From contig NC_042997.1 in assembly GCF_006345805.1 (NCBI RefSeq), forward strand, positions 183,458,001-183,522,000: DNA of 64,000 nt, given 5' to 3'. Each line of letters opens with the position of its first letter. The first letter of the stretch is position 1. Below, one piece after another: positions 7,439-34,804 of the stretch. Source of the stretch: Octopus sinensis. Taxonomy: Eukaryota. The notes under the pieces are model-generated. The model did no database searches and had not been told where the DNA came from. It was given only the letters and a program-made list of their open reading frames with translations. A program made the translations under genes and the position numbers.

Positions 7439-8317
7439 GACAATATGAAGAGCGCAATGTGATTGTAATAGATATTTTATTGGTTGAATGATATTTTGAC
7501 ATTTTGCCTGTCAAGTTCAAAATGAAAAGTGATACATAGAAATTCAAATTCAAAATTTCAAAGAGGGCGACCAGCATTCCCACATTGATAAAATGACATC
7601 ATCAATTTTCAATTTTCAAATTTACAACTGGCAAAAAGAAAAAGAAAGAAAAAAGAAAAAAAAGAAAAGAAAAAAGAAAAGGAAAAAGAACAATATTTAA
7701 TGAAACAGTATTGTGTAAATATGGTGAAATTCTCTTGTCATTTTATTCATACCTTCAGGGTGTAATGTTCATAGCTTACAAACATATTTCTCCTCATGCA
7801 TTTTGAGTACTGAATATTTTCTGAGAATATGCACTTTCAAGTCCTTTTCGAAATTGCAACCGTTTGATGTAAAATGTTTGGCAAGTTCTGTTGAACTGCT
7901 GTTATTGAGCCTGACATCATATCTGTGCCCACTGAAAATATTCAGAATCTGCTACACTGTCAGTCCTCAAAGTGCATGAGGAGAAATATGTTTGTGAACT
8001 ATTAACATCACACCCTGAAGAGATGAATAAAGTGACAGGAGAATATCATCATATTTACACAAAACCATTCCATTAAATATTTTTCTTCTTTTTCCTTTTC
8101 TTTTTTTTCTTTTTTGCCAGTTGCAAACTTGAAAATTGAAGACTGATGATGTCATTCCATCAACATGGGAATGCTGATTGTCCTCGTTCAAATTTTGAAT
8201 TTGAATTTCTATGTATCACTTTTCATTTTGAACTCGACAAAGACAGGCAAGCTGTCAAAATGTCATTCAACCAATAAAATATCCATTGTAATCACATTGC
8301 GCTGTTTGCATTGTCTA
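7437..8317. mobile_element. Fold-back element/MITE with ~370-bp imperfect inverted arms
   Basis: 7437-7813 is the reverse complement of 7960-8317 (e.g. gttcaaaatgaaaagtgatacatagaaattcaaattcaaaattt / aaattttgaatttgaatttctatgtatcacttttcattttgaac); flanked by (TTA)n and (TAA)n. Confidence 0.85.
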
Positions 8318-16468: not shown

Positions 16469-16614
16469 CTGCAAAAAAAAGATAAATATATAAGAAAATT
16501 TATAACAAAAATGTCAAAAAATAAATTCCTGGAAATGTTTTCAGTTTTTAAATTAATTTCCTTATATCTGATATTGTAAGTCTTAATCATGATCCTCACA
16601 AAATGATGGGAATG

Positions 16615-16937
16615 TTTCTTTCTTTCTTTCTTTTCGCCCTTATCAAGCCTAGCCAGGCTCATGGGCCCGGTTTTCCAGTTTCTGTGGCACATGCGTTCCC
16701 CCCAGCTGCACGGGACGCCAGTCCATCGCAGCGTTACTCAAGAAACAGGAAGAGAGAGTGAGAGAAAGTTGTGGTGAAAGAGTACAACAGGAGTCGCCAC
16801 CACCCCCTGCCGGAGCCTCGTGGAGCTTTTAGGTGTTTTTGCTCAATAAACACACACAACGCCTGGTCTGGGAATCGAAACCGCGATCCTCCGACCGTGA
16901 GTCCGCTGCCGTAACCACTGGGCCATTGCGCCTCCAC
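16615..16937 (-). mobile_element. tRNA-derived V-domain SINE (relatively young, CpG-rich copy)
   Basis: Reverse complement of 5216-5540 along its whole length. Confidence 0.85.
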
Positions 16938-17502
16938 ATGGGAATGTTTACAAGTTTAAAGATCATTATTAAAATGAATTACAAATAAAGTTGGCTCATA
17001 TGAAACAATACTGATTTCTTTATTTGTAACAGAAGAAAATTAACCATGATAACAGTACACTTCAACAGAAAGGAATGTATGAAATTTAACTTTCTATATA
17101 TTATATAATTCTGTTGTTAGTGACTTTGAAGTTACCCCAATGGTGACTTATTCAAATTACTTCAGTTTGAATAAGCCATCAATGTTAAAACTTGAAAGTC
17201 CCCATCAGCAAAATTATACTAGACTCAACACATGTATTGCACATTTTATTTGGTAAATGTCTCTTATCTTTATGCATTTAAATATTTATTTTTCAACACT
17301 ATTTATATACATACGTGTGTGTTTGTGTGTGTGTGCATGTGTGTTTGTGTGAGTGTAGGCATGGCTGTTTGGTTAAGACCTTTCATTTCTGATTGCATGG
17401 CACTTTAGGCAAATGTTTCCTTCTGTAGGCCCAATTCAACCAAAGCCCTGAGTGGATCTGGTAGTCTGGTAAATGGAAATTGAAAGAAGCCTGTTGCATA
17501 TA

Positions 17503-17559
<57 letters not shown>

Positions 17560-17684
17560 GTATGTATGTATGCATACAATTATGCATACAGTCACACATA
17601 TTTATACAGACACACATATGCTTAAGCACTCCGAAAATTTTCCCATGGTTATATTTATGGCTGCCAAAATACACATACCTATTT

Positions 17685-17897
17685 CTTTACTACCCACAAG
17701 GGGGACAAACAAGGACAGACAAATGGATTAAGTTGATTACATCGACCCCAGTGCGTAACTGGTACTTAATTTATCGACCCCGAAAGGATGAAAGGCAAAG
17801 TCGACCTCGGCGGAATTTGAACTCAGAACATAACGGCAGACGAAATACGGCTACACATTTCGCCCGGAGTGCTAATGTTTCTGCCAGCTCGCTGCCA
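17685..17897 (-). mobile_element. tRNA-derived SINE, tail variant A (core recalled as Meta/Sauria-SINE-like)
   Basis: Minus strand ggcagcgagctggcagaaacattagcac...gagttcaaattccgccgaggtcgactttgcctttcatcctttcggggtcgataaattaagtaccag...tgtgggtagtaaagaaat. Copies near 35955-36184, 37495-37712, 50750-50985(+), 51615-51847, 55095-55330(+) and 62170-62590 (tandem dimer). Confidence 0.85.
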
Positions 17898-18734
17898 TAT
17901 ACACACACCAGGAACTTCATTAATACTGTTTTTGTCCAAATATGCTACACAAACATTCACTCCTACCCCAAAGAAAAAAAAAATCAACTAACCAAGTTAT
18001 ATATATTCTTCCTAATTAAATTTTTAAGGGTTACTAAAGATTCTAAGAAACCCCTAATCATACCACAGATTATAGTTTTCTCAATTTGCTGGATGTTGAA
18101 ATTTAGTACTGTTTCAAAACAAACAAATTTTTTTTTATTATATTGGGTTCATCATTCAGTTGTGGCCATGCTGGAGCATTATCTTCTAAGGTAGAGTTAA
18201 TTATATCAACCTCAGGATATATTTTATTGATCTGAGGAAGATGAATGTTGACCTGGGTGAGAAATGAATTTACAATGTGGAGTGATGTAAAATGGATACA
18301 ATATCAGGCCATTATCCCTCAAACCAGGAATATGTTGTACAGCTGGCATTTAACTCAACATACCAGAGTACATAATTTAAATAAAAAATAGGTAATATTT
18401 ATTCCCACTTAAATGTGGATGTTCTGTTAGAACAAACTATACTGCGGCAGGCACCATGAAAGAAATTCTCATATTGGCTTTTGGCGCAAAATACACTCTT
18501 GTTTATATTGCTAGTGGGGAGATAAATCTCTACCACCTTTAGCACTGAGACCACTACATCACAGGATTTTGACTTTCCTTAGTTGTGACGATGATGGATG
18601 CTCAACCGCTAGAGATAGCAGTGACTCATCTCCCCACTAGCAATATATAGAAAACCCGTGCCAGAACAGGGGCTGGATAAATATTACCTCTCAGTACTAA
18701 TACTGCCTCTGTTGCTAATATATAATTCTCTCTT

Positions 18735-19125
18735 TCTCTCTCTTTTGTTTCAGTCATTTGACTGCAGCCATGCTGGAGCACCGCCTTTAGTCAAGTAAAT
18801 CAACCCCAGGACTTATTCTTTGTAAGCCTAGTACTTATTCTATCGGTCTCTTTTGCCGAACTGCTAAGTTACAGGGATGTAAACACACCAGCATCGGTTG
18901 TCAAGCGATGTTGGGGGGACACACAAACATATATGCACACATACATACATATATATATACATATATGTGACAGGCTTCTTTCAGTTTCCGTCTACCAAAT
19001 CCACTCACAAGGCTTTGGTTGGCCCGAGGCTATAGTAGAAGACACTTGTCCAAGGTACCACACAGTGGGAATGAACCCGGAACCATGTGGTTGGTAAGCA
19101 AGCTACTTACCATACAGCCACTCCT
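18735..19125 (-). mobile_element. Full-length microsatellite-containing SINE
   Basis: Reverse complement of 22517-22930 across head, microsatellite and tail. Confidence 0.85.
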
Positions 19126-20285
19126 GACAAGAAATCTTAATATATTGAAATTGTTGTCAAGTTTGTGCTTATTGAAAGTAATGAATACTAAAAGCTATTT
19201 AATCATTCTTTATTTAGTCTATTATAATATATGCCTTACAAAGACATTATATTGGGGAAATAAATTAGATTTACAATGGCACTCAATTTGAAAATCTTTA
19301 GGATATTTTACTTGAAAAGCAAGCAGTTCAGTAATTAGTTTAAAGCTGTAAACATTTCTTTATTTTATTTTTCATGCTTTTTTTGTTTCATTTAGAGGCT
19401 ACACAAAGTTACACTATTTAAACTAAAGAATAGTTATTTAGCTGTGACATTGTTATTTTTATAATAACCTTTAAGTGGGATTTAGACAATATATAATCTA
19501 TATTTATATAATATCCACAATTATCTAAAGCTATATTGAACTGAGGTTAAGCTACTCTTGCCGACCAAAATGTAACTGAATAGTTTAAGTATTTTGCTTG
19601 AAGCCTTACCAATTTGACCAAAAATGTATGACATCATCTAATTCTACCTCCTATTTCATTCTACCAGCTTGCAGCTTTCCTTATTATTAATAGCAATTAA
19701 AAGGGCAGTGGATGGCAAACTCTGTAGAACAACAGGCAAAAATGCTTTTGCATTATTTATTTACTCCCTTTATGTTCAGTTTTGTTTTTCATTCTTTTGG
19801 TTTTAATAAAATAAGTACCAGCCAATGAATGTGGTTACTTAAACTGATTATGCATCTTAAAATTTGTGGCCTTAAGCCAATGTTAAAAATTAATATTTAA
19901 TACATCTGTTCTTTATAAATCTTAATACTAATAGCATATTTATTATACAGCATTTTAGGCTCTCATTCTTCAGGGGTGAATAATGCAAGTATCAGACAAG
20001 CATTCGGGTTGATTACACTGACTACACTCCTCCCTTCGAGTTTATGCCCTCCATCATTATCATCCTTTTAATGTCCATGTTCTATGCTAGCATGAGTTGA
20101 ATACTTTGACAGGATCCAATGGGTCCAAAGACTGCATCATGCTCTAATGTCAGCTTTGGCATGGTTCCTATAGCTGGATGCCTTTCCTAATGCCAACCAC
20201 TTTCCAACATGTACTGGGTGCATTTTTGTGCTACGAGCACTAAAGAGTTTGCCATAAAGCTGGCAAAACCACAAACCCTGAGGTA

Positions 20286-20316
<31 letters not shown>

Positions 20317-21479
20317 TGTGTGTGTGTGTGTTTGTGTATGGGTGTGTGTGCACACGTGCGTGCATATGTGTGTGTGTATGGTTGTGTGTGCACATGTGCA
20401 TGTATGTGTGTGTATAGAATTAACAGTGTCAGGAAAAATACCTTGTGGTATTTAGTTGTAATGTTATAAACCATTATTGATCATTATTATCATAATTGTT
20501 TAACATTCTCTTTCCAAGCTGGCATGGGTTAGATGGTTTGATCGAAAACTGGTAAGCTGGGGGCAGCACCAGGTTCCAATCTAAGTTGGCAAGTTTTCTA
20601 CGGATGGATGTCCTTCCTAATACCAACCACTCCGTGAGTGTAGTGGGTGCTTTTTACATGCTACCAGCATGGGTGCCATTGACCTGACACCACCATCGGC
20701 CACAATTATGGCCTCCTTTGGCTTGACAGGTCAACATAAGCATGGTATATCGCCAAGGATCTTGGCCACCTGTCACTGCCTCCATGCAGCCCATGCTTTT
20801 TACATGCCAACCAGCTCCATGAGACCCAACATTCAAATGGTGCTTTTTACATACCAATAACATATTTTATCAAATCCTTACATATTCATATACTTGTATA
20901 TCTATGATACTATAAGTTATCAAGAGTTATATGTAAAATCGTAACTATGTTCTTAGTAATTGAGGCTGGTAAGGAGTTCAGAAACCATTTGTAATAGACT
21001 ATTCAAAATAGATATCTCTAAAATAAGTAATGCTTGTTATAATTTGATTTGTTAAGAATAATTGTAGTTATGATACCCGTGCCAGTGGCACGTAAAAAGC
21101 ACCAACCAATCGTGGCCGTTTGACAGCCTTCTCTGGCTCCTGTGCTGGTGGCACGTAAAAAGCACCCACTACACTCATGGAGTGGTTGGCGTTAGGAAGG
21201 GCTTCCAGTTGTAGAAACACAACCAGATCAGACTGGAGCCTGGTGCAGCCTCCTGGCTTCCCAGACCCCGGTTGAACCGTCCAACCCATGCTAGCATGGA
21301 AAACGGACGTTAAACGATGATGATGAATTATGATATTGTGAACTGAGGTTAGTACATGTCCCTACATTAAACACTAAATTCTTCTGCTAATATTAAGTGA
21401 CTTACAAATTACCTTGTGGAAGTAGGAAAAAATAGTACAGTTAAAATAATAGAAACAAGTTATAATTCCTAATTTGAAG

Positions 21480-22140
21480 AGATGGCATAACAGGTAGACT
21501 GTAATTGATAATACAATTGCCTGGCAAGTAATATATATGTTGTTTGAATCGCATCAGTGATTGTCTTTCTTATTTCAACTTCAAATAGGTACTTGTAATG
21601 TTCAATATTAGCAAGGATGTTGTGACAACTCCAATTTGCTTTTCTGTAGTTTGCATCAGTTCTCACAGACAGTAATATACCATCAATGGTAATATACCAT
21701 GGTGCATCAAAGAATGAAGTTATTTAGTGTCAATGAAAACAAAGTGGGAGGAACAAACAAAAATGGGGTATATGCATACAAAGCAACTCTTCTAGGTGGG
21801 CATTAATACCTCTGTGGAGGTAGGAGAAAAAAGATGATAGCTTGTCATAGAATAATATGTATGCACACTATTTAGTTATAGTGTACATTGGAAGGAATTT
21901 CATAATGTGTACAACATGAATATGTACTGGTAGCTACTGAAGAAACCAGGTGTGAAAGAGAACAGTTGAAATCTAAGTTGTCTATTCAACTTATTTGCAG
22001 CTATGCCTCTGAAATTTCTTTCTGAAGTCACTTATTCTGAGTGTGAACAAGCAAACTACTAAACAACCATATATGATTACCAAGAGAAGTGTTACAGATG
22101 TGAGTTAAAGGCCAAATAAAAGTAAGGTGAAATAATTTGG
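21480..22140 (-). mobile_element. Highly decayed LINE reverse-transcriptase remnant (tentative)
   Basis: Scattered minus-strand pieces (LTHICNTSL, WSCHNILANI, YKYL) fall in the order expected for a non-LTR RT; many stops and frameshifts. Confidence 0.3.
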
Positions 22141-22516
22141 TAATTCACTCTCAATCATATAAAAATTATATATAATCATTAGCATTCAGCTAAAACTAAA
22201 AGAATAAGAAAAAGTAATAATAATTATAGGAATAATAGTTCTAATTATTATATAACTATTACTATTATTAAAAGAGCTGTGAACTAAATGCCTAGCAATG
22301 TTCAGTCTCTCAATGTTCGTACGCTCAAAGCCTTCGGGTGTTGACTTTTCCTCAAAAGTCAGTAAAATAGAACCAGGCTGTGTGGTATGAATTTGCTTTC
22401 CAGCTACATGGTTCAGGGTTCAGTCCCACAGCAAATGTCTTCTACTAATAGTTCTGGGCTGAACGAAGCCTTATGAATGGATCTGGTAGATGGAAACTGA
22501 AAGAAGGCCATCATAC

Positions 22517-22930
22517 AGGTGTAGGAGTGGCTGTGTGGTAAGTAGCTTGCTTACGAACCACATAGTTCCGGGTTCAGTCCCACTGCGTGGCACCTTGGGC
22601 AAGTGTCTTCTACTCTAGCCTCGGTCTGACCAAAGCCTTGTAAGTGGATTTGGTAGATGGAAACTGAAAGAAGCCCATCATATATATGTATATATGTATA
22701 TATGTATGTGTGTGTATGTTTGTGTGTCTGTGTTTATCCCCGCCAACATCGCTTGACAACCAATGGTGGTGTGTTTACGTCCCCGTAACTTAGCAGTTTG
22801 GCAAAAGAGACCGATAGAATAAGTACTAGGCTTACAAAGACTAAGTCCTGGGGTCGATTTGCTCAACTAAAGGTGGTGCTCCAGCATGACTGCTGTCAAA
22901 TGACTGAAACAAGTAAAAGAGAATAAAAGA
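22517..22930 (+). mobile_element. Full-length microsatellite-containing tRNA-SINE nested in an older copy of the same family (~22375-23230)
   Basis: Head aggagtggctgtgtggtaagtagcttgcttacgaaccacatagttccgggttcagtccc, then (TA)(TG)n, then tail ...aaatgactgaaacaagtaaaagag. A degraded head precedes it and a degraded tail follows it. Other copies near 45198-45790, 53468-53822 and 57828-59295. Confidence 0.85.
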
Positions 22931-23447
22931 GAAAATATTTGCATGTCTGTGTGTGTACACGTATGTGTATGTGTATGTGTGTGTGAGAGAGAGAGAGAAA
23001 GAGAGAGACAGAGTATCTTTGTGGTTGCATTTGTCCTCCCCACCATCGCTTGACAACCAGTATCAGTTTGTTTATGTCACTGTAACTTAGCAATTCAGCA
23101 AAAGACACCGATAGAGTACGTACTAGGCTTTAAAAGAATAAATACTGGAGATGATTTATTTGATTAAAATCCTTTCAACATAGTGCTCCAATATGGCTGC
23201 ATTCAAATGAATGAAACAAGTAAAAGATCAGTGAATCTGTAAAGCCAACTGGTGAAAGAAATGGATAGGTTTTGGTCTTATTAGATCTTTTCAGCAAAAC
23301 ATATTCTACTGAATTGGCAAATGATCAGTATATATATATATATATAAATATAATAAAATATTATTTGAGACAAAACCACTATTTTGCAAAACAAACAAGG
23401 AAAGACTTAATCAATACATAAAATTTAATAAATAGTCAAAAAAACCG

Positions 23448-23490
23448 CCACTACAATCGTTTCTTGTCTTGATCGACAATCTTCAGGTGG
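23448..23490 (-). ncRNA. Minimal type-I hammerhead ribozyme motif (mirror copy, sense to the TBC1D16 pre-mRNA)
   Basis: Exact reverse complement of 23552-23594 within the palindrome. Confidence 0.8.
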
Positions 23491-23551
23491 ACTTCCAATA
23501 ATTCAGTTACAAATTATGAAGTTCATAATTTGTAACTGAATTATTGGAAGT

Positions 23552-23594
23552 CCACCTGAAGATTGTCGATCAAGACAAGAAACGATTGTAGTGG
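23552..23594 (+). ncRNA. Minimal type-I hammerhead ribozyme motif
   Basis: CCAC-CUGAAGA-UUGUC(gaucaa)GACAA-GAAAC-gauu-GUA-GUGG: stem I CCAC/GUGG, canonical CUGANGA and GAAA boxes, 5-bp stem II, very short stem III, GUA cleavage triplet (cut after 23590). Confidence 0.8.
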
Positions 23595-23777
23595 CGGTTT
23601 TTTTTGACTATTTATTAAATTTTATGTATTGATTAAGTCTTTCCTTGTTTGTTTTGCAAAATAGTGGTTTTGTCTCAAATAATATTTTATAATATTTTAC
23701 TATAAAATTGGATTTAATCCTAAATCTGATTTTTTTTCCCTGTAAATTTGGATATATTCCCTAATATTTATTATTTA

Positions 23778-23990
23778 TATATAAATATATATATATATAG
23801 GGAGAATTCACGAAAAAAACAAAAGATGAAGACAGGTGGTGTAGAAAACAAACAGATGTATTAGTATAACGCTCGGGAATTGAAAAAGTCTTTTATGTTT
23901 CGAGCCTACACTCTTCCACAGAAAGGAACACAGAAAGAAACAAGGAGAGCAACAAGGAGAGAAAAAAATGTGTATAGTAGCTATCATGGC
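23778..23990 (-). mobile_element. Penelope-like terminal fragment with a variant hammerhead-like motif (second copy ~45400-45580)
   Basis: Two copies begin tatagggagaattcac...; the minus strand carries CUUU-CUGUGGA-A-GAG...CUC-GAAAC-AUA-AAAG; both abut (TA)n. Confidence 0.5.
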
Positions 23991-24188
23991 AACTGCTGGA
24001 CATAAGGGTTACTCAATGCCAGCAGGGTGGCATCATCTGAAAGCTACAATAATGCGAGGAAGTACATTGTGAACAGTGGTGTGTATCAACATTTGATAGT
24101 CAGATTGCTACAGTGATATAATATACATACATATGTGTGTGTATGTGTGCATGTGTGTGTGCAAGTGTGTGTGTGTGTGTGTGTATAA

Positions 24189-24394
24189 TTAAATAAAGAT
24201 AGTTATGGCTGGTGTATGGAGTTACCCTGGGTTTCACATCCATAAAGTGCTTAGCTTTATAGTGTTTCTTAAGACCCTAATGGGGTTATCAGCCACTGGC
24301 CATTAGGATCTGAAGAAACATTGTAAACCTAAGCACTTTATGGATGTGAAACCTAGGGCAACCCCATAGACCGTCCATGACTACCTTTATTTAA
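24189..24394. repeat. Imperfect hairpin with ~95-bp arms
   Basis: ggtttcacatccataaagtgcttag / ctaagcactttatggatgtgaaacc exact core; arms extend with mismatches; ~16-nt loop. Confidence 0.8.
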
Positions 24395-24797
24395 ATACTC
24401 CACTGCTCTATAGCCTAGAGTGTGCTTCTCTCTCAGATTTATGATTTACTGATGATATATATACCTATATATATATATATATGTACAAACATTTGACTCT
24501 GCAACACTGTATATAAATTCTCTACTGAGAATGACCTAGTTTAAAATTCTGCTGGATCTCACTCATTGCTTACATTGCTTATAAACTCTATATTTGGAAG
24601 GAGTCATATTAAACCCTGTTGGACTTTTGGATTTTACTCAAAGGATATTGGAATATTGCATATATACAATTATGCATATAAAACGGATTTACAACTTCAA
24701 TACCCATACATATCTTACATCTATTTTCTTTCCTCCACCTCACTCTCTATTTTGTATCACATCTAAACTAACTATGACTTAATTTTCCTCTCACACC

Positions 24798-24849
24798 GTC
24801 TCCGATGAAGGGATATTATTAATTAATATCCTAGAAACAGCTGTAAGAC
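24798..24849 (+). ncRNA. Type-I hammerhead-like motif (core variant CCGAUGA) within a ~580-bp probable Penelope-like fragment (24482-25060)
   Basis: GUCU-CCGAUGA-a-gGGAUAUUA(uuaau)UAAUAUCCu-a-GAAAC-AGCU-GUA-AGAC. The palindromic stem III ACAGCUGU is typical of Penelope hammerheads; U4-to-C deviation. Confidence 0.6.
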
Positions 24850-25072
24850 CTTCTATCTATAAATGCTCTAATATCTATACAGCCTTGGTTTTTTTTATCT
24901 TATTACGCAAAAAATTCTTATATACACACACTGATATAGAACCAACGTTGAACCCTTTATTCACAATATTACTGAATCTGGAACTTAACTATGGTCTGTC
25001 TATAGCACTTATTCAGCATTACCTGACACCTTTGGGTCTCAATGACACCATTATCTATTATAATATATATAT

Positions 25073-25105
<33 letters not shown>

Positions 25106-25345
25106 GAATGAATGCATGAATTATAGTAACACTGATTAGAATATGAAAAATATGGCTAAGGGGCTACATTCTGTATATTAAATACAAATATGCATCAGTT
25201 TCATATATAATCATACTAATCAGATAACTTCATTATTACTGACTGAATGCCTTTTGAGTATTTCAAGTTGTAAACTACAGTAATCTTTGTTGCTTGCCTA
25301 ATGCTGGCAATATTATAGAGTCAGTAAAATAATTCATTGAATTAA

Positions 25346-25565
25346 CCCTTTCATTGCTGTATTTATTTTGAGATGCTCTGCGTTTCTTTCAATTACTTTA
25401 AATATAACAAAGAATTTAGTAAAATAATTTAGTTATCATTCAGTTAGTATTAGGAGCATAAATTGTGACTAAAGTTTGGTGGAAGATTTTAATTAAAATC
25501 TTATGAAAACAAGACATTTGTACTCAGAGCCAGAGCTGGTTTCAGCCAGGTTGGTAATGAAAGGG
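25346..25565. mobile_element. piggyBac-type MITE, 220 bp, TTAA TSD
   Basis: ttaa|ccctttcattgc ... gtaatgaaaggg|ttaa; an inverted second copy of the same length lies at 56845-57064. Confidence 0.85.
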
Positions 25566-26433
25566 TTAAACATTTTGAAAAATGTCTCTTTACTTGTTTT
25601 TCTTGTCTTCTCAAAGCAATACACAAAAAAAAAAAAAAAGGAAAAATGCTGGTTACACCTGTTTTACCATTTATTCCAAAATTGAAAGGTTTGAAAATGC
25701 ACATCTGGTGCTGTTAACAATCAAAATAATCATTTCTCAAATTGCTATAATTTTGCTGAGCAGGATTAATAATAATCAGTTAAATTGAACAAGTATATAA
25801 CTGTCAGAAGGCTGAAAGGCAAATCAGATCATGGCTGGATTTAAACTCAGCATGTTGAGAAGACTAAACTATGATATTGAAAAGTCTTTAATCTTGTGCT
25901 TTAATATATCTGCTGTACCACAAACTCACTAATAATGATAATAATAGAGAAAAGATGAAGGAGATTGCTAGAGAAGGGGAAATAAAATTTATGATTTCAT
26001 GATTTTCCAAAAGGATGAAGTGAAGTGGTTCTGAACAGAAACTGAAAAACTGGTTCCTCCTGCATTTATTTCTACTTAGTGAAATTTGCTGCATATAATA
26101 TAACAATAACAGTTATTGTAACAACAATAGCATTAGCTTGTTTTTCTTTAGCAAAACTCAATATTTAGTATCTAATTTCCTTAGCAAAAACCCAAGTAGT
26201 TTTTATATTATTTGTGTCGAAGGAAAAATTGCATTGCATGTAAAATGTAAAATCCAATTTATTTTTCTAGGTCTGAAGCCTTACATAAAACAGTAATTTC
26301 CTTATATAGCATGAAACATTTAAGTTAAAGTCAGAACAAAGATTGTTCATAAACAACCATTTAATTGAATTGGCTGCACTATACTCATTTGCTGAAATGG
26401 TTTCCACACAGATTTAGCAACAACTGACAGATA

Positions 26434-27266
26434 CAAGAGGGTACCCAAAAGTAACCGGGAGCATTTTCTGTAGGACAAGCCCATTGTAGTTCGGTCTTCC
26501 ACTGCTAGAAGCCACTTGATGCAACCCTCAGGCATCAGTCTTGTGACCAGCATTGTTGGGTTAGGTCATACTGCCACATGGTGTGTCTTTGTTTTGATGT
26601 GCTTCTCTATTTGTCAATTTTTGTGATGGCTAAAATGAAGGAACAGCATGCTTCTGTGAAATTCTGTTTTCTGCTGGGGAAAACAGCAGACAAAACAATT
26701 GTCATGCTTCAAACAGCCTACAAGGACACTGCCACAAGCAAAATACAAGTTTATGAGTGGTTTCTACACTTTAGGAATGGTTACTTGTTGCTTGAAGACC
26801 AACCTTGTTCAGAGCAACTGTCGACCACCCGAACAAATGAAAATTCATGAACTGATCTTGGAGGACCATCACTGAACAACTAACAAACTTGTTGATATGA
26901 TTGGTGTGTCCTGGAGTTCGTGCTAACGAATTTTGAGTGAGGAATTGCGAATGAAAAGAAATGTAGCAAAATTTGTGCCTTGCTTGCTCACAGAAGATCA
27001 AAAGCAGTCACGACTGAATGTGCATTGTGAACTGAAAGAACAGTTGGAAATTGATCCAGTCATCACTGGTGATGAAAGATGGTGCTATGGAATTTGCAGA
27101 AGTGGAAGAGGGGAAGACAAAACGATGGAGGCGTCAAAAGGCATCACTTTGCAAGAGTCCCAGCACTACTTTCAAACAGTGGAAAACGCATCTGGACATA
27201 TAAACATGGAAAACTAAGTGAATAAATAGCATTGCAAAATTCTGGTTTCTTTGGGGTACCATGTCA
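26434..27266 (+). mobile_element. Mariner transposon, internally deleted, pseudogenised transposase
   Basis: ORF pieces EQHASVKFCFLLGKTADKTIVMLQTAYKD...VYEWFLHFRNG...LEDQP and AKFVPCLLTEDQKQSR...ITGDERWCY (HTH, WVPHEL-like linker, first catalytic D); TIRs caagagggtacccaaaagtaaccgg / ctggtttctttggggtaccatgtca; TA flanks. Confidence 0.88.
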
Positions 27267-28650
27267 TATGTAAAGTAAGCAGAATGATGTTCATTTATTC
27301 CATTTGTAGCTTTTCATGTTATCAAGGGTGTGTTATGAGTTATGGTTATTAGATATGTGGTTACTAATTGGTCCTAACATACATTTTTTAAGATTTGATA
27401 ATTAGGGTAGAAAATATTAAGGGATTTGATGGGATGAGGTGACTGTGTGATAGTGAAAAGGACAGTTATATGATCCTGGCAACTGTCCTTTAAAATAACT
27501 TTTGTTTTAGAGATTAGCCAGAAGAAGAGCTTAAGAATTTTTTGCAGAGTCTCCTTCGACCGGTGAGAGGAAAGGAGGAAGATTTTGATATCCACAAACA
27601 GAGATGTGGTCTGAGCCACTGCATTAGACTGGACTCTATGAAAAGCACCTAACTTAGGGGCCAAACTGTCCATCAGATGGTCATCTATAGTTTCCAGTTG
27701 TCCATTTTCACTCACAATTGTCTCCTACCATACCCAAGGTTTTAGTGGAAGAAACTTGCCCAAGGTGAGGTTGAACTTAAAGCTGTGTGTGTGAGAATCA
27801 AACTTCTTAACCACACCCATGGATGAAGTGAACTGAAGCTAAAAATGTAATAAACATTTTTCAATTTTCACAAGAATGCTAGTCATATAAAAATATTGCT
27901 TACACACACACACACACACACGCACGCACACACACACATGACAGGCTTTATTTTGTTTCTTGTTTACCAAATCCACTCATAAGGCTCTGATTGGCCTGAG
28001 ACTATAGCAGAAGGCACTTGCCTAAGGAGCCATACAGTAGGATTGAACCCAGAACCGTGTGATTTTGAAGCAAGCTTCTTACCACACAGCCACACATGCA
28101 CCTATATATATATATATATATATATAGTAAAGAAAAGAAACACTGGTTAAAAACCAAATGAGTATGCCTTGGAACAACAAAGGAAAAACTTACCATAACT
28201 ATTCTATTTAAGAATGTCTTTATTTTATTTCACTTTTTTTGTTATTAGTAGTGGGAGGTAAACCTTTCAGAAATATAAATCTTGATACACGCTATTAAAG
28301 TTATTTATCAAAGAGTAGAGATTTCTATCTTTCAACTACTCAAAAATGCTTTTAAAAATAGACAACTGCCGTTAGATGAAAAATACGAAAAGAAAATGTG
28401 TGCACATAGCTTTGCCAATACTAAATTAATTACTATGATTATCTGTCTGATATTAGAGTTTAGATTACTTCACTGATTACTAAATAGGATGTATGTAGCT
28501 AAAGTTAAAATGACTCTGTTATTATTTGTATGTTTGTTTTTCAAGTTATTCCACCTTGTATCTTAACAATTAGTTTTGCAAATACACAAATTCCCTGTTA
28601 CTCTCTCTCTTTCTCTTAGAAGCGTTTGTAAGTGCATATACTCACCACCC

Positions 28651-28689
<39 letters not shown>

Positions 28690-28702
<13 letters not shown>

Positions 28703-28990
28703 TAAATTAGAGAAAAACCACTATTATGTGATTCAAACAATGATAGACATAACCAAATCATAAAGAAAAAAAAAATATTATAAAACATATAACTAGATCA
28801 CAAAAAGTACAAAAAGTCTTTATGATTTGGTTTATGTCTATCATTGTTTGAATTACATAATAGTGGTTTTTCTCTAATTTATATATATTATATATATATA
28901 TATATGTATATTTATATTGTGAAATTTGATTTAATACTAAATTGAATTTTTCCCTGTAAGTTTGGAGTTATACTCTCTGTTATTATTATT
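28690..28990. mobile_element. Probable Penelope-like fragment with ~70-bp inverted arms, same family as 23353-23780
   Basis: 28701-28766 is the reverse complement of 28817-28883. Shares aaaaccactatt and ...ttttccctgtaa.tttgga with the 23.4-kb palindrome; lies in (TA)n. Confidence 0.65.
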
Positions 28991-29434
28991 ATATATATAT
29001 ATATATATTATCATCATCATCATCATCATCATCATTTAGCGTCTGCTTTCCATCCTAGCATGGGTTGGACGGTTCAACTGGGGTCTGTGAAGCTGGAAGG
29101 CTTCGTCAGGCCCAGTCAGATCTGGCAGTGTTTCTACGGCTGGATGCCCTTCCTAACGCCAACCACTCCGTGAGTGTAGTGGGTGCTTTTTACGTGCCAC
29201 CTGCACAGGTGCCAGACAGAGCTGGCAAACGGCCATGAACGGACGGTGCTTTTACGTGTCACCGGCACGGGGCCAGGCGATGCTGATATGTATATATATA
29301 TTAATACCTGGTATATGTAGTCGAGGCAACATTTAATTAAAATATTCATCTATGCATCATACATAATGCGTACACATTGTTGCTAGGCCACTGACTGCAG
29401 TTTCTTGACCTGAGATAACATCTCAGTACTGCAA

Positions 29435-29631
29435 CAACTTTATAAGATCTTATACGTATATTTGATGTCACTTTCTTATTGTTTGGAGCAGACTATCCAC
29501 TTGCATGATCCTAATCAGTGCCTAGACCAGAATCTGTTTGTGATTTATTACTGAGTTCATATTTTTCTTGGTAGGAATCATAGACACTGATTTCTTCCCA
29601 AGACCCAACTGAAATTTCTGAGCATAAACTG
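29435..29631 (-). pseudogene. Intronic direct duplicate of part of TBC1D16 exon 2 (source 30749-30945)
   Basis: Gap-free alignment at offset 1314 with about 16 mismatches in 197 nt (counted by eye); a TGG codon has become TAG. Confidence 0.92.
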
Positions 29632-29863
29632 GGAATCAAACTTACAACCTTATGATCATGAACTGAATACTCTAACCACTAAGCCATACACTTTCAAGTA
29701 TATCATATATGTATATATATATGTGTGTAAATGTGTATATGTGTGTATGCAAGTAAGTAGATAATATGTATACGTGCATGTTTGTTAGTGTGTATTTGTG
29801 CATTTCCATAAATATTTTGTGACACAAAATAAAAAATCTTTTAGAAAGTTCAACAGTACATAC

Positions 29864-33526: not shown

Positions 33527-34804
33527 TAAGGCAGTTTGTATGAAGTTGAGTTAAAAGTTTTTTTTTCAAATTTTCACTGATAGGTTTTGGCAACTTGTAT
33601 CTCTGTGTTTTATCATTAATTTGATGCAATTTGTTCAATTATTTGCTGAGTTGTTTAGTCTTTGTTTACATATATAACCTAGAAACATTAATTGTTTATC
33701 CTTTATTTTACAGCTTTGATAATGGGTGGTGAAAAATATGTAATTAGAGTCATTTTATGCAAGGACCAATTGCAAGGACAGTGGAAAAAGAAACTAATGA
33801 TGTGGAAATGCCAGTATCTGTCAATGAACATGTGGGCACAAAACTGTTTAAGATGTCTCAAGGAAGGGAGACCAACCTTGAAGACAAACCAAGGTCAGGG
33901 AGACTGTCTGTTGTGGAAGATGAGGCTTTGTTTGAAATGGTTGAACAACAGCCAAGCACAAGCGATTATACATTGTTAGCAGAACTTGGTCCTTCACAAA
34001 GCACCATCAACTGACACCTTCATAAGCTTGGCCTTGTGAACAAACAAAGTTGAGAAGTTCCTCATAACAGACCAATGATCAGGCTCAATGATATATGAAC
34101 ATTTGCAAACAGCTACTGGCAAATCCTCAAAATGCTTGTTTTTGGTGTCAAATTATAACTGTGGATGAAATGTGGGTCTATATTCGTAACCTTATTAAGA
34201 GAAATTCCAGCTATGCTTCAGAAGCTGTTGTCAAACAAGGGCAGTTTGGACAGAAGATAATGTTGTGTGTTTGGTGGAATTTTGAGGTGGGTGTTGCTCT
34301 TTGAGCTTGTTACAGATGGTCATGCTATGAATACTAACCTTTATGCTCAACAACTGAAGCAAGTAAACGATGCTTTGAAAACCCGCTATCCAGCATTGGA
34401 TAATCAAAGACATGTGCTCCTACAGCATGATAATGCCCTAGCACACATGGCCAATGTGACCCCATGCAAACCTGAGGAATTTGAGGGGCTGGAAATGGTG
34501 CTGTCTCACCCTGCCTACAGTCAGATTACGACCTTTTCCAAGCCATGCTACATTACTTGCATGGATGGAGGTTCAACAATGCGGATGAGGTTGAAAATGG
34601 GTGCAGGGACTTTCTTGCCTCTTAACCAGCCAAATAGTATAAGCATGGAATTAAGCTTCTGGCATAATTATGGCAACAGACAATACAATATGAAGAGATA
34701 TAGTTTGATAAATAATTGCTTTCTGTATGTAATTTGTTTGAACTATTAATTAAAGCTTGAAATATGAGAAAAACTTTTGACTCAACCTGACAAAATAGCT
34801 TTAT
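33527..34804 (+). mobile_element. Near full-length (~1.28 kb) decayed mariner element
   Basis: Frameshifted transposase motifs LEDKPRSGR, IITVDEMWVY, KIMLCVWWN, LLQHDNALAH and SHPAYS; TIRs gttgagttaaaagttttt / aaaaacttttgactcaac. Confidence 0.9.

Follow-up and report, generated by a model that had tools for sequence, protein, structure and literature searches.

The window, by which we mean the whole 64-kb stretch of octopus DNA that was analysed, contains the gene TBC1D16 on the minus strand. In one of its introns (16470..29861, minus strand; placed by a tblastn exon map made with protein P0085, with the GT donor and AG acceptor visible in the sequence) lies a long palindrome. The original prediction named the host as intron 2 of TBC1D16; the host intron stands, and its number counts from the first matched exon, which begins at residue 18 of the Argonauta protein, and may in truth be higher. 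Protein P0078, which carries an octopus label at its source, matches this genome at 100%. When aligned, the arms of the palindrome (23353-23520 and 23522-23690) differ only by one extra T in a T-run, and 83 bp on either flank of G23521 form a perfect palindromic core; the other near-spacerless palindromes in the window reach at most 25 bp, and every one of them is an AT repeat. A palindrome with a single homopolymer difference had been predicted and is there, but the insertion does not end with it at 23690: blastn to a master copy of the source element (locus L091) carries the right arm about 90 nt further, to about 23781. The flanks of the palindrome are unique and have no mirror copy.

With the leader of the source element numbered from the first base of its exon 1 (+1, the inferred start site), the short arm occupies 23353..23522 on the minus strand and covers +1 to about +171, and the long arm occupies 23522..23781 on the plus strand and covers +3 to about +250-260, matching the master at 99% over 23543-23781. 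Both the sequence and a survey of junctions place the head-to-head join of the two arms at 23519..23524, with a 1-nt overlap; G23521, first described as a 1-nt loop, can alternatively be taken as base +2 of the short arm. Only the long arm has the one-sided tail of about 80-90 nt (23691..23781, plus strand), whose limits are fixed by alignment of the copies and by blastn. A (TA)n-rich target lies to the left of the insertion (23329..23352) and a (TA)n target to its right (23782..23799). No target-site duplication is readable at TA-repeat insertion sites, and no tandem array was found at this locus. Each arm carries an exon1-exon2 splice junction from which a 1.33-kb intron is absent, at 23499..23500 on the minus strand in the short arm, where the match to the master ends at 23499, and at 23542..23543 on the plus strand in the long arm; the GT donor and AG acceptor of that intron are present in the masters L048 and L091. 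Elsewhere in the window we noted an older imperfect inverted repeat in another TBC1D16 intron (7509-8239, with arms 7509-7813 and 7960-8239 that are 84-86% complementary), broken reading frames at 33748-34749 with a resemblance to mariner-type transposase, and, just within the host intron, an 82%-identical second match to TBC1D16 residues 208-272 (29436-29630), possibly an exon duplicated in part.

Back-to-back hammerhead ribozymes, one per strand, had been predicted in the arms, and the full conserved core can be read in each (C3 U4 G5 A6 A7 G8 A9; G12 A13 A14; A15.1-U16.1; GUA cut triplet). They are minimal type I hammerheads with three stems, stem I being CCAC/GUGG, stem II 5 bp and the self-complementary stem III 2 bp, and both are the same exact 43-mer: one lies at 23552..23594 on the plus strand (predicted cut 23590|23591), the other at 23448..23490 on the minus strand, which is the pre-mRNA strand (predicted cut 23452|23451). 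The proposed check with Rfam did not serve, since its models miss both ribozymes: over the window no family reached its gathering score, and no hammerhead family figured in 34 matches at E<=10, among which the microRNA matches were discarded as generic hairpin resemblance below gathering scores. The claim that the motif is of the kind that cleaves as a dimer gained support from RNA folding, in which two free arms co-fold, unconstrained, into the dimeric ribozyme at a modelled -21.4 kcal/mol. A single arm folded as a ribozyme no better than shuffled sequences (z 0.52), a score that is uninformative for a motif of this dimer-forming kind. Across the genome there are 1,607 occurrences of the exact 43-nt ribozyme (0 of its reversed control), and the 43-mer is exact in 45 of 51 ribozyme-covering arms found without a ribozyme query; the family is therefore young. 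In three other families of Penelope-like elements (PLEs) of this genome the sequence of stem I varies with its pairing kept, and stem III is palindromic.

A query with the right arm returned 1,476 candidate places in the genome. One of these, on another chromosome, is identical to the arm at 179 of 179 nt, which supports the recent insertion that had been proposed and removes the need for the arm-to-arm conversion offered beside it, because youth alone explains the identity of the arms. The suggested origin from a PLE pseudo-LTR was upheld when the genome search tied the arm to the L091 unit, a repeat of 5,613 bp that comprises exon 1, a GT-AG intron, the hammerhead, a reverse transcriptase (RT) ORF and a GIY-YIG-type domain. 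The masters L048 and L091 share the order promoter-like DNA, TCACTTC, 23-nt exon 1, 1.33-kb GT-AG intron, ribozyme-bearing exon 2 and ORF; by the Inr consensus, we take TCACTTC to be Inr-like. A TCACT Inr-like site has been noted for PLEs (PMC3846280). The ORF of L091 has the motifs IKWK, SDKT and LYRDD, the last within a 519-aa RT frame, and is frameshifted downstream of the RT domain; a fully unbroken copy of this family was not among the copies analysed. [quoted passage not shown] There are 84 homologues at E<=0.001, many with PF26215, and each motif is common to 42-47 of the 48 homologues of at least 650 aa (RWK-type 43/48, DKT 47/48). A direct Pfam search of the ORF gave no RT or GIY-YIG match and a PDB sequence search also missed the RT, so that assignment to the EN+ PLEs rests on motifs and homologues: a single ORF with a PLE-type RT plus a GIY-YIG endonuclease at the C terminus, and copies with partial-tandem pseudo-LTRs, an inverted 5' copy and a one-sided tail. 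Within this group the RWK-type motif (here KWK), DKT, the CxCX5C linker, CxxC/CxH, the (TA)n target and the canonical hammerhead core place the source as a 5.6-kb Hydra-clade PLE, as far as motifs, target and ribozyme define that clade. Long asparagine-rich inserts between RT and endonuclease are found in L091 (6600-7200) and likewise in L248, L287 and L288; public databases name proteins with such inserts 'GATA zinc finger domain-containing protein 14-like', and inserts of this kind have been described for Adineta PLEs (PMC3846280).

Because both window arms carry the exon1-exon2 junction without the intron, their template was spliced sense RNA. Exact acceptor junctions genome-wide are spliced in 670 cases and intron-retaining in 608, and the state of the promoter follows that of the intron: among 159 distinct exon-1 junctions, upstream promoter DNA is absent from 119 of 120 spliced ones and present in 38 of 39 unspliced ones (37 by pattern and one variant read by eye). 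The sole spliced junction that keeps promoter DNA (L203, G000:C2:13264864) ends early, at about +109. A second difference concerns the base before +1, for which G and C alone were queried. Among the matches listed (100 of 428), all 80 unspliced junctions have the genomic C there and 18 of the 20 spliced ones have G (Fisher p 6e-18), and in L1 an extra G is a mark of cap copying (PMC11702581). Most of these junction Gs double as a base of the opposite arm, and in a set of 40 junctions, selected in part for G, only about 3-4 have a G that does not come from the other arm; the extra G likely creates the 2-nt overlap behind the commonest junction. The window junction itself has no extra G. At L015 a spliced copy runs on as far as the ORF and abuts a pseudo-LTR that is inverted, unspliced and still has its promoter, a layout that would be expected if one transcript were spliced at its front and unspliced in its downstream pseudo-LTR.

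The anatomy of the copies was surveyed at 246 loci, which gave 344 distinct matches and, after 28 exon-1-only or locus-edge-cut matches had been dropped, 316 arms. The arms end at two fixed positions, 157 of them at about +171 and 143 at about +250, with 14 continuing into the ORF and 2 other fragments, and TA repeats adjoin 298 of the 300 fixed ends. Long ORF-bearing insertions are bounded by the same outer ends as short ones. The window copy is one of the head-to-head pairs, 94 of 96 of which consist of one long and one short arm; the short arm extends further 5' than the long arm in at least 7 pairs. Within pairs the two arms show 49 differences over 11,256 sites, whereas comparisons between loci show 6,099 over 357,135; both arms belong to the same subfamily in 83 of 87 pairs, and 6 rare variants are common to both arms in 5 pairs. 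This closeness suggests that the two arms of a pair had one template or one source locus, although the rare variants common to both could also be due to a source locus that they share, to conversion at a later time or to polishing of the assembly. Junctions are highly varied overall; the commonest is present in several subfamilies and in both polarities, with 10 long-arm and 7 short-arm cases (17 of 40 pair junctions reaching +1, in the set partly chosen for G). Two further arrangements were observed, namely an array of ~243-bp units that lack the ribozyme, lie in either orientation and span +120 to the beginning of the ORF (L101, G000:C2:128738173-128739703), and short palindromic insertions duplicated in tandem with their flanks at periods of 453 bp and 577 bp (L032-L034 and L026-L027), which are either segmental duplications or an assembly effect.

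The window insertion is thus of an ordinary kind, one of hundreds of young short PLE insertions: it has its source element in the same genome, splice junctions in both arms, two fixed 3' ends set in TA targets, and a long arm paired with a short one. We consider it very probable that the palindrome is a short, promoter-less Hydra-clade PLE insertion whose arms are copies of the spliced leader, likely synthesised as two separate cDNAs on the capped sense mRNA, with the cap-side ends of the two then likely joined to each other. In the mechanism that we propose, the GIY-YIG endonuclease would nick both strands of a (TA)n run, each nicked 3' end would prime reverse transcription within the RNA, one at about +250 and the other at +171, both cDNAs would extend to the cap, and the cDNA ends would anneal through 1-3 nt of microhomology, with host repair filling in; the same reaction, started from the unspliced pseudo-LTR copy further downstream in the transcript, would account for the long insertions that keep the intron. 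Some of these steps are reported for the Anolis element Poseidon (PAc; Frangieh et al. 2024, PMC11167929), whose protein in vitro nicks and extends both strands of an AT-rich target from two internal start sites that bound the tail.

Other origins of the palindrome fit these observations less well. Self-priming on an antisense template, put forward for PLEs generally by Arkhipova et al. 2013 (PMC3846280) to explain head-to-head junctions together with intron retention, is very unlikely here, as both window arms are spliced at a sense-strand GT-AG intron and spliced copies go no further than the sense start site, where an extra G is often present; antisense RNA would show neither mark unless it had itself been copied from spliced RNA. 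One junction sequence and similar outer ends are common to many copies, as they would be if the palindrome moved as a unit, either as a fold-back or MITE-like element or through a non-autonomous palindromic master. We nevertheless think this improbable given the wide variation of the junctions, the occurrence of the commonest in both polarities and several subfamilies, and outer ends that are unequal and also bound long ORF-bearing insertions; fold-back and MITE DNA transposons have equal terminal inverted repeats copied as DNA, and the present copies have unequal ends and a spliced-out intron. Perfect palindromes can also arise from chimeric long reads, but an assembly or fold-back read artefact would copy the flanks and stop at random, and the flanks are unmirrored while the inverted part ends at +171 copy after copy, so that this explanation deserves next to no credence. 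Fold-back of a single cDNA is rejected on account of the pairs whose short arm extends beyond the long one in the 5' direction, and it fails together with the copying of a master palindrome because the commonest junction exists in both polarities.

The 5' ends of the arms bear on the ribozyme. They were examined in a sample not chosen by 5' end, that is, matches to a pattern of +137 to +171 (among the matches listed, 100 of 641), from which 32 intron-retaining arms and 6 internal tandem duplicates were excluded. The 62 remaining arms start at +1 to +12 (19 arms), +25 to +71 (3), +79 to +107 (37) or later (3). The predicted cut lies at +71|72, so that 37 of the 62 start 8-36 nt 3' of it, and only 3 of 43 truncated ends fall within +25 to +71 (p 4.5e-7 against a uniform distribution). 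In the 19 pairs kept for a pair test, 10 were cut/cut, 8 full/full and 1 mixed (p 1.2e-4); the test left out 8 of 27 pairs (5 with tail fragments, 1 with a duplicate piece, 2 with a middle end), and all 96 pairs include 10 full/cut ones. Unpaired arms joined to TA repeats likewise start at +80 to +103, so that the cluster cannot be put down solely to palindromes that lost their centres at a later time. Arrest of the RT at the U-run or at stem I, in place of cleavage, is a live alternative, for it predicts the same 5'-end region, and the majority of the cluster ends lie 8-25 nt beyond the cut and not on it. A second Hydra-like PLE family of this genome has no cluster at the cut site among its 86 arms (p 0.72, fitting uniform truncation): 49 pass the aligned region, 28 end at -251 to -8 and 9 at +13 to +81 relative to the cut. 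Cleavage by the ribozyme, judged from these end positions, has in our view a little better than an even chance of being behind the cluster, which would then be a mark left in vivo by a cleaving PLE hammerhead. For PAc, uncut RNA was the dominant template in vitro and RNA-seq showed no ends at the ribozyme cut (PMC11167929), whereas many octopus copies begin just 3' of the predicted cut.

The same second family, seen at L277:3168-3280 (G000:C26) and also L282-L286, repeats the two fixed ends, with 46 and 40 of the 86 arms about 170 nt apart. It has 363 exact matches to one leader pattern, unbroken 960-aa ORFs in L248 and L250, and a hammerhead whose stem II is very long and whose stem I is 2-3 bp. 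Two further PLE families (L287:8221-8308 and L288:5408-5495) have hammerheads in which stem I is varied with pairing kept and stem III is a perfect palindrome.

We advance tentatively, at somewhat short of an even chance, a broader proposal: that the stubs are an in vivo record of the PLE cycle, in which one capped sense transcript serves a dimeric RT-endonuclease for the priming of two cDNAs that overlap, splicing removes the 5'-UTR intron from the cap-proximal copy alone, and much of the template is RNA that the hammerhead has cleaved. Were this true, 'intron retention' in PLEs would be mere copying of the unspliced downstream pseudo-LTR.

It had also been proposed that ADAR, by editing the hairpin in the intron, could either release the ribozyme or wreck its core, as an editing-gated self-cleavage switch; TBC1D16 would then be regulated by it. 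Some of its premises hold: in the pre-mRNA the antisense arm is transcribed first and the ribozyme second, the ribozyme on that strand has an intact core, and a 168-bp duplex within a transcribed intron is a good ADAR substrate. In folding models, however, the pre-mRNA segment folds at -289 kcal/mol, and the penalty for imposing the ribozyme fold is 80 kcal/mol without editing, 55-76 kcal/mol at 50% editing (inosine taken as G or as non-pairing; 55-70 kcal/mol when edited As are unpaired) and still 40 kcal/mol in the extreme case in which every A outside the ribozyme is non-pairing; folding of the ribozyme is thus at least 40 kcal/mol uphill throughout. Heavy editing would also strike the five essential core As, which in the model are all intact in only ~3% of molecules at 50% editing. 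Besides, the ribozyme belongs to the dimer type, the one partner it has in cis is antisense, the insertion is identical to copies elsewhere in the genome, and A>G changes are not in excess among rare changes in short copies (4 of 83), a count that probes the source RNA and not the TBC1D16 pre-mRNA. We therefore regard the switch as highly improbable. In TBC1D16 pre-mRNA the copy is predicted to form a hairpin of 168 bp in which the ribozyme cannot take up its fold, and editing or dicing of that hairpin would be plausible. With the same layout in hundreds of copies, a special role of this locus finds no support; the insertion is most likely a neutral passenger, probably irrelevant to TBC1D16 function.

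Several elements of this picture are known from other systems. There are reports of inverted pseudo-LTRs that have a tail on one side, of TA targets and of hammerhead pairs on opposite strands (PMC8557442, PMC3846280, PMC4209133), these pairs lying 100-700 bp apart (PMC4209133). The C-terminal-EN PLEs of the Hydra clade (Craig et al. 2021, PMC8557442) share with the octopus family the RWK-type motif, DKT, the CxCX5C linker, CxxC and CxH around conserved E and N with no CCHH, the hammerhead and the (TA)n target. Their usual unit, however, is below 3 kb against 5.6 kb with an N-rich insert here, and the octopus family stands apart in its more than 1,600 ribozyme copies and in having about as many spliced as unspliced junctions, although the supplements of that paper may include mollusc families near to it. 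PLE insertions with an inverted pseudo-LTR (PMC3846280, PMC8557442) have the same head-to-head copy, extension at one end, microhomology joins and Inr-like TCACT start, whereas the octopus stub lacks the ORF body, has both arms spliced and is cap-ended; their tail measures 30-40 bp, against about 80-90 nt here and about 170 nt in the second family. The minimal hammerheads that metazoan PLEs carry (Cervera and de la Pena 2014, PMC4209133) likewise have a 4-bp stem I, a stem III that is very short and has a self-complementary loop, and an intron that ends just upstream, but the octopus ribozyme is without their extra base before stem II. Non-LTR retrozymes (10.64898/2026.07.22.740005) are likewise short, non-coding, PLE-derived and endowed with a type I hammerhead; they form head-to-tail tandem arrays in which each unit has a hammerhead, whereas the octopus stub is a head-to-head pair with no tandem units. 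Twin priming of L1 (PMC11702581) also yields two cDNAs from opposite DNA ends, a microhomology join and a cap-derived extra G, but the inverted pieces of L1 copy adjacent, nearly non-overlapping parts of the RNA, and both octopus cDNAs copy the same 170 nt. Our literature search found neither this octopus PLE family, nor spliced cap-ended PLE stubs, nor the split between a spliced front and an unspliced downstream copy; supplements and subscription papers, which lay outside the search, could list the family.

The origin of PLE inverted repeats, the keeping of introns and the role of the hammerhead are stated open questions for these elements (PMC3846280, PMC8557442, PMC4209133, PMC11167929). 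The octopus copies carry marks of their template, namely the splice junction, the start site, the extra G, the two start points and possibly the ribozyme cut, and these marks point, with exact positions, to a sense spliced template. Altogether, this PLE family has seeded hundreds of near-perfect 170-bp hairpins in the octopus genome which, where they are transcribed, are a possible source of edited or diced RNA.
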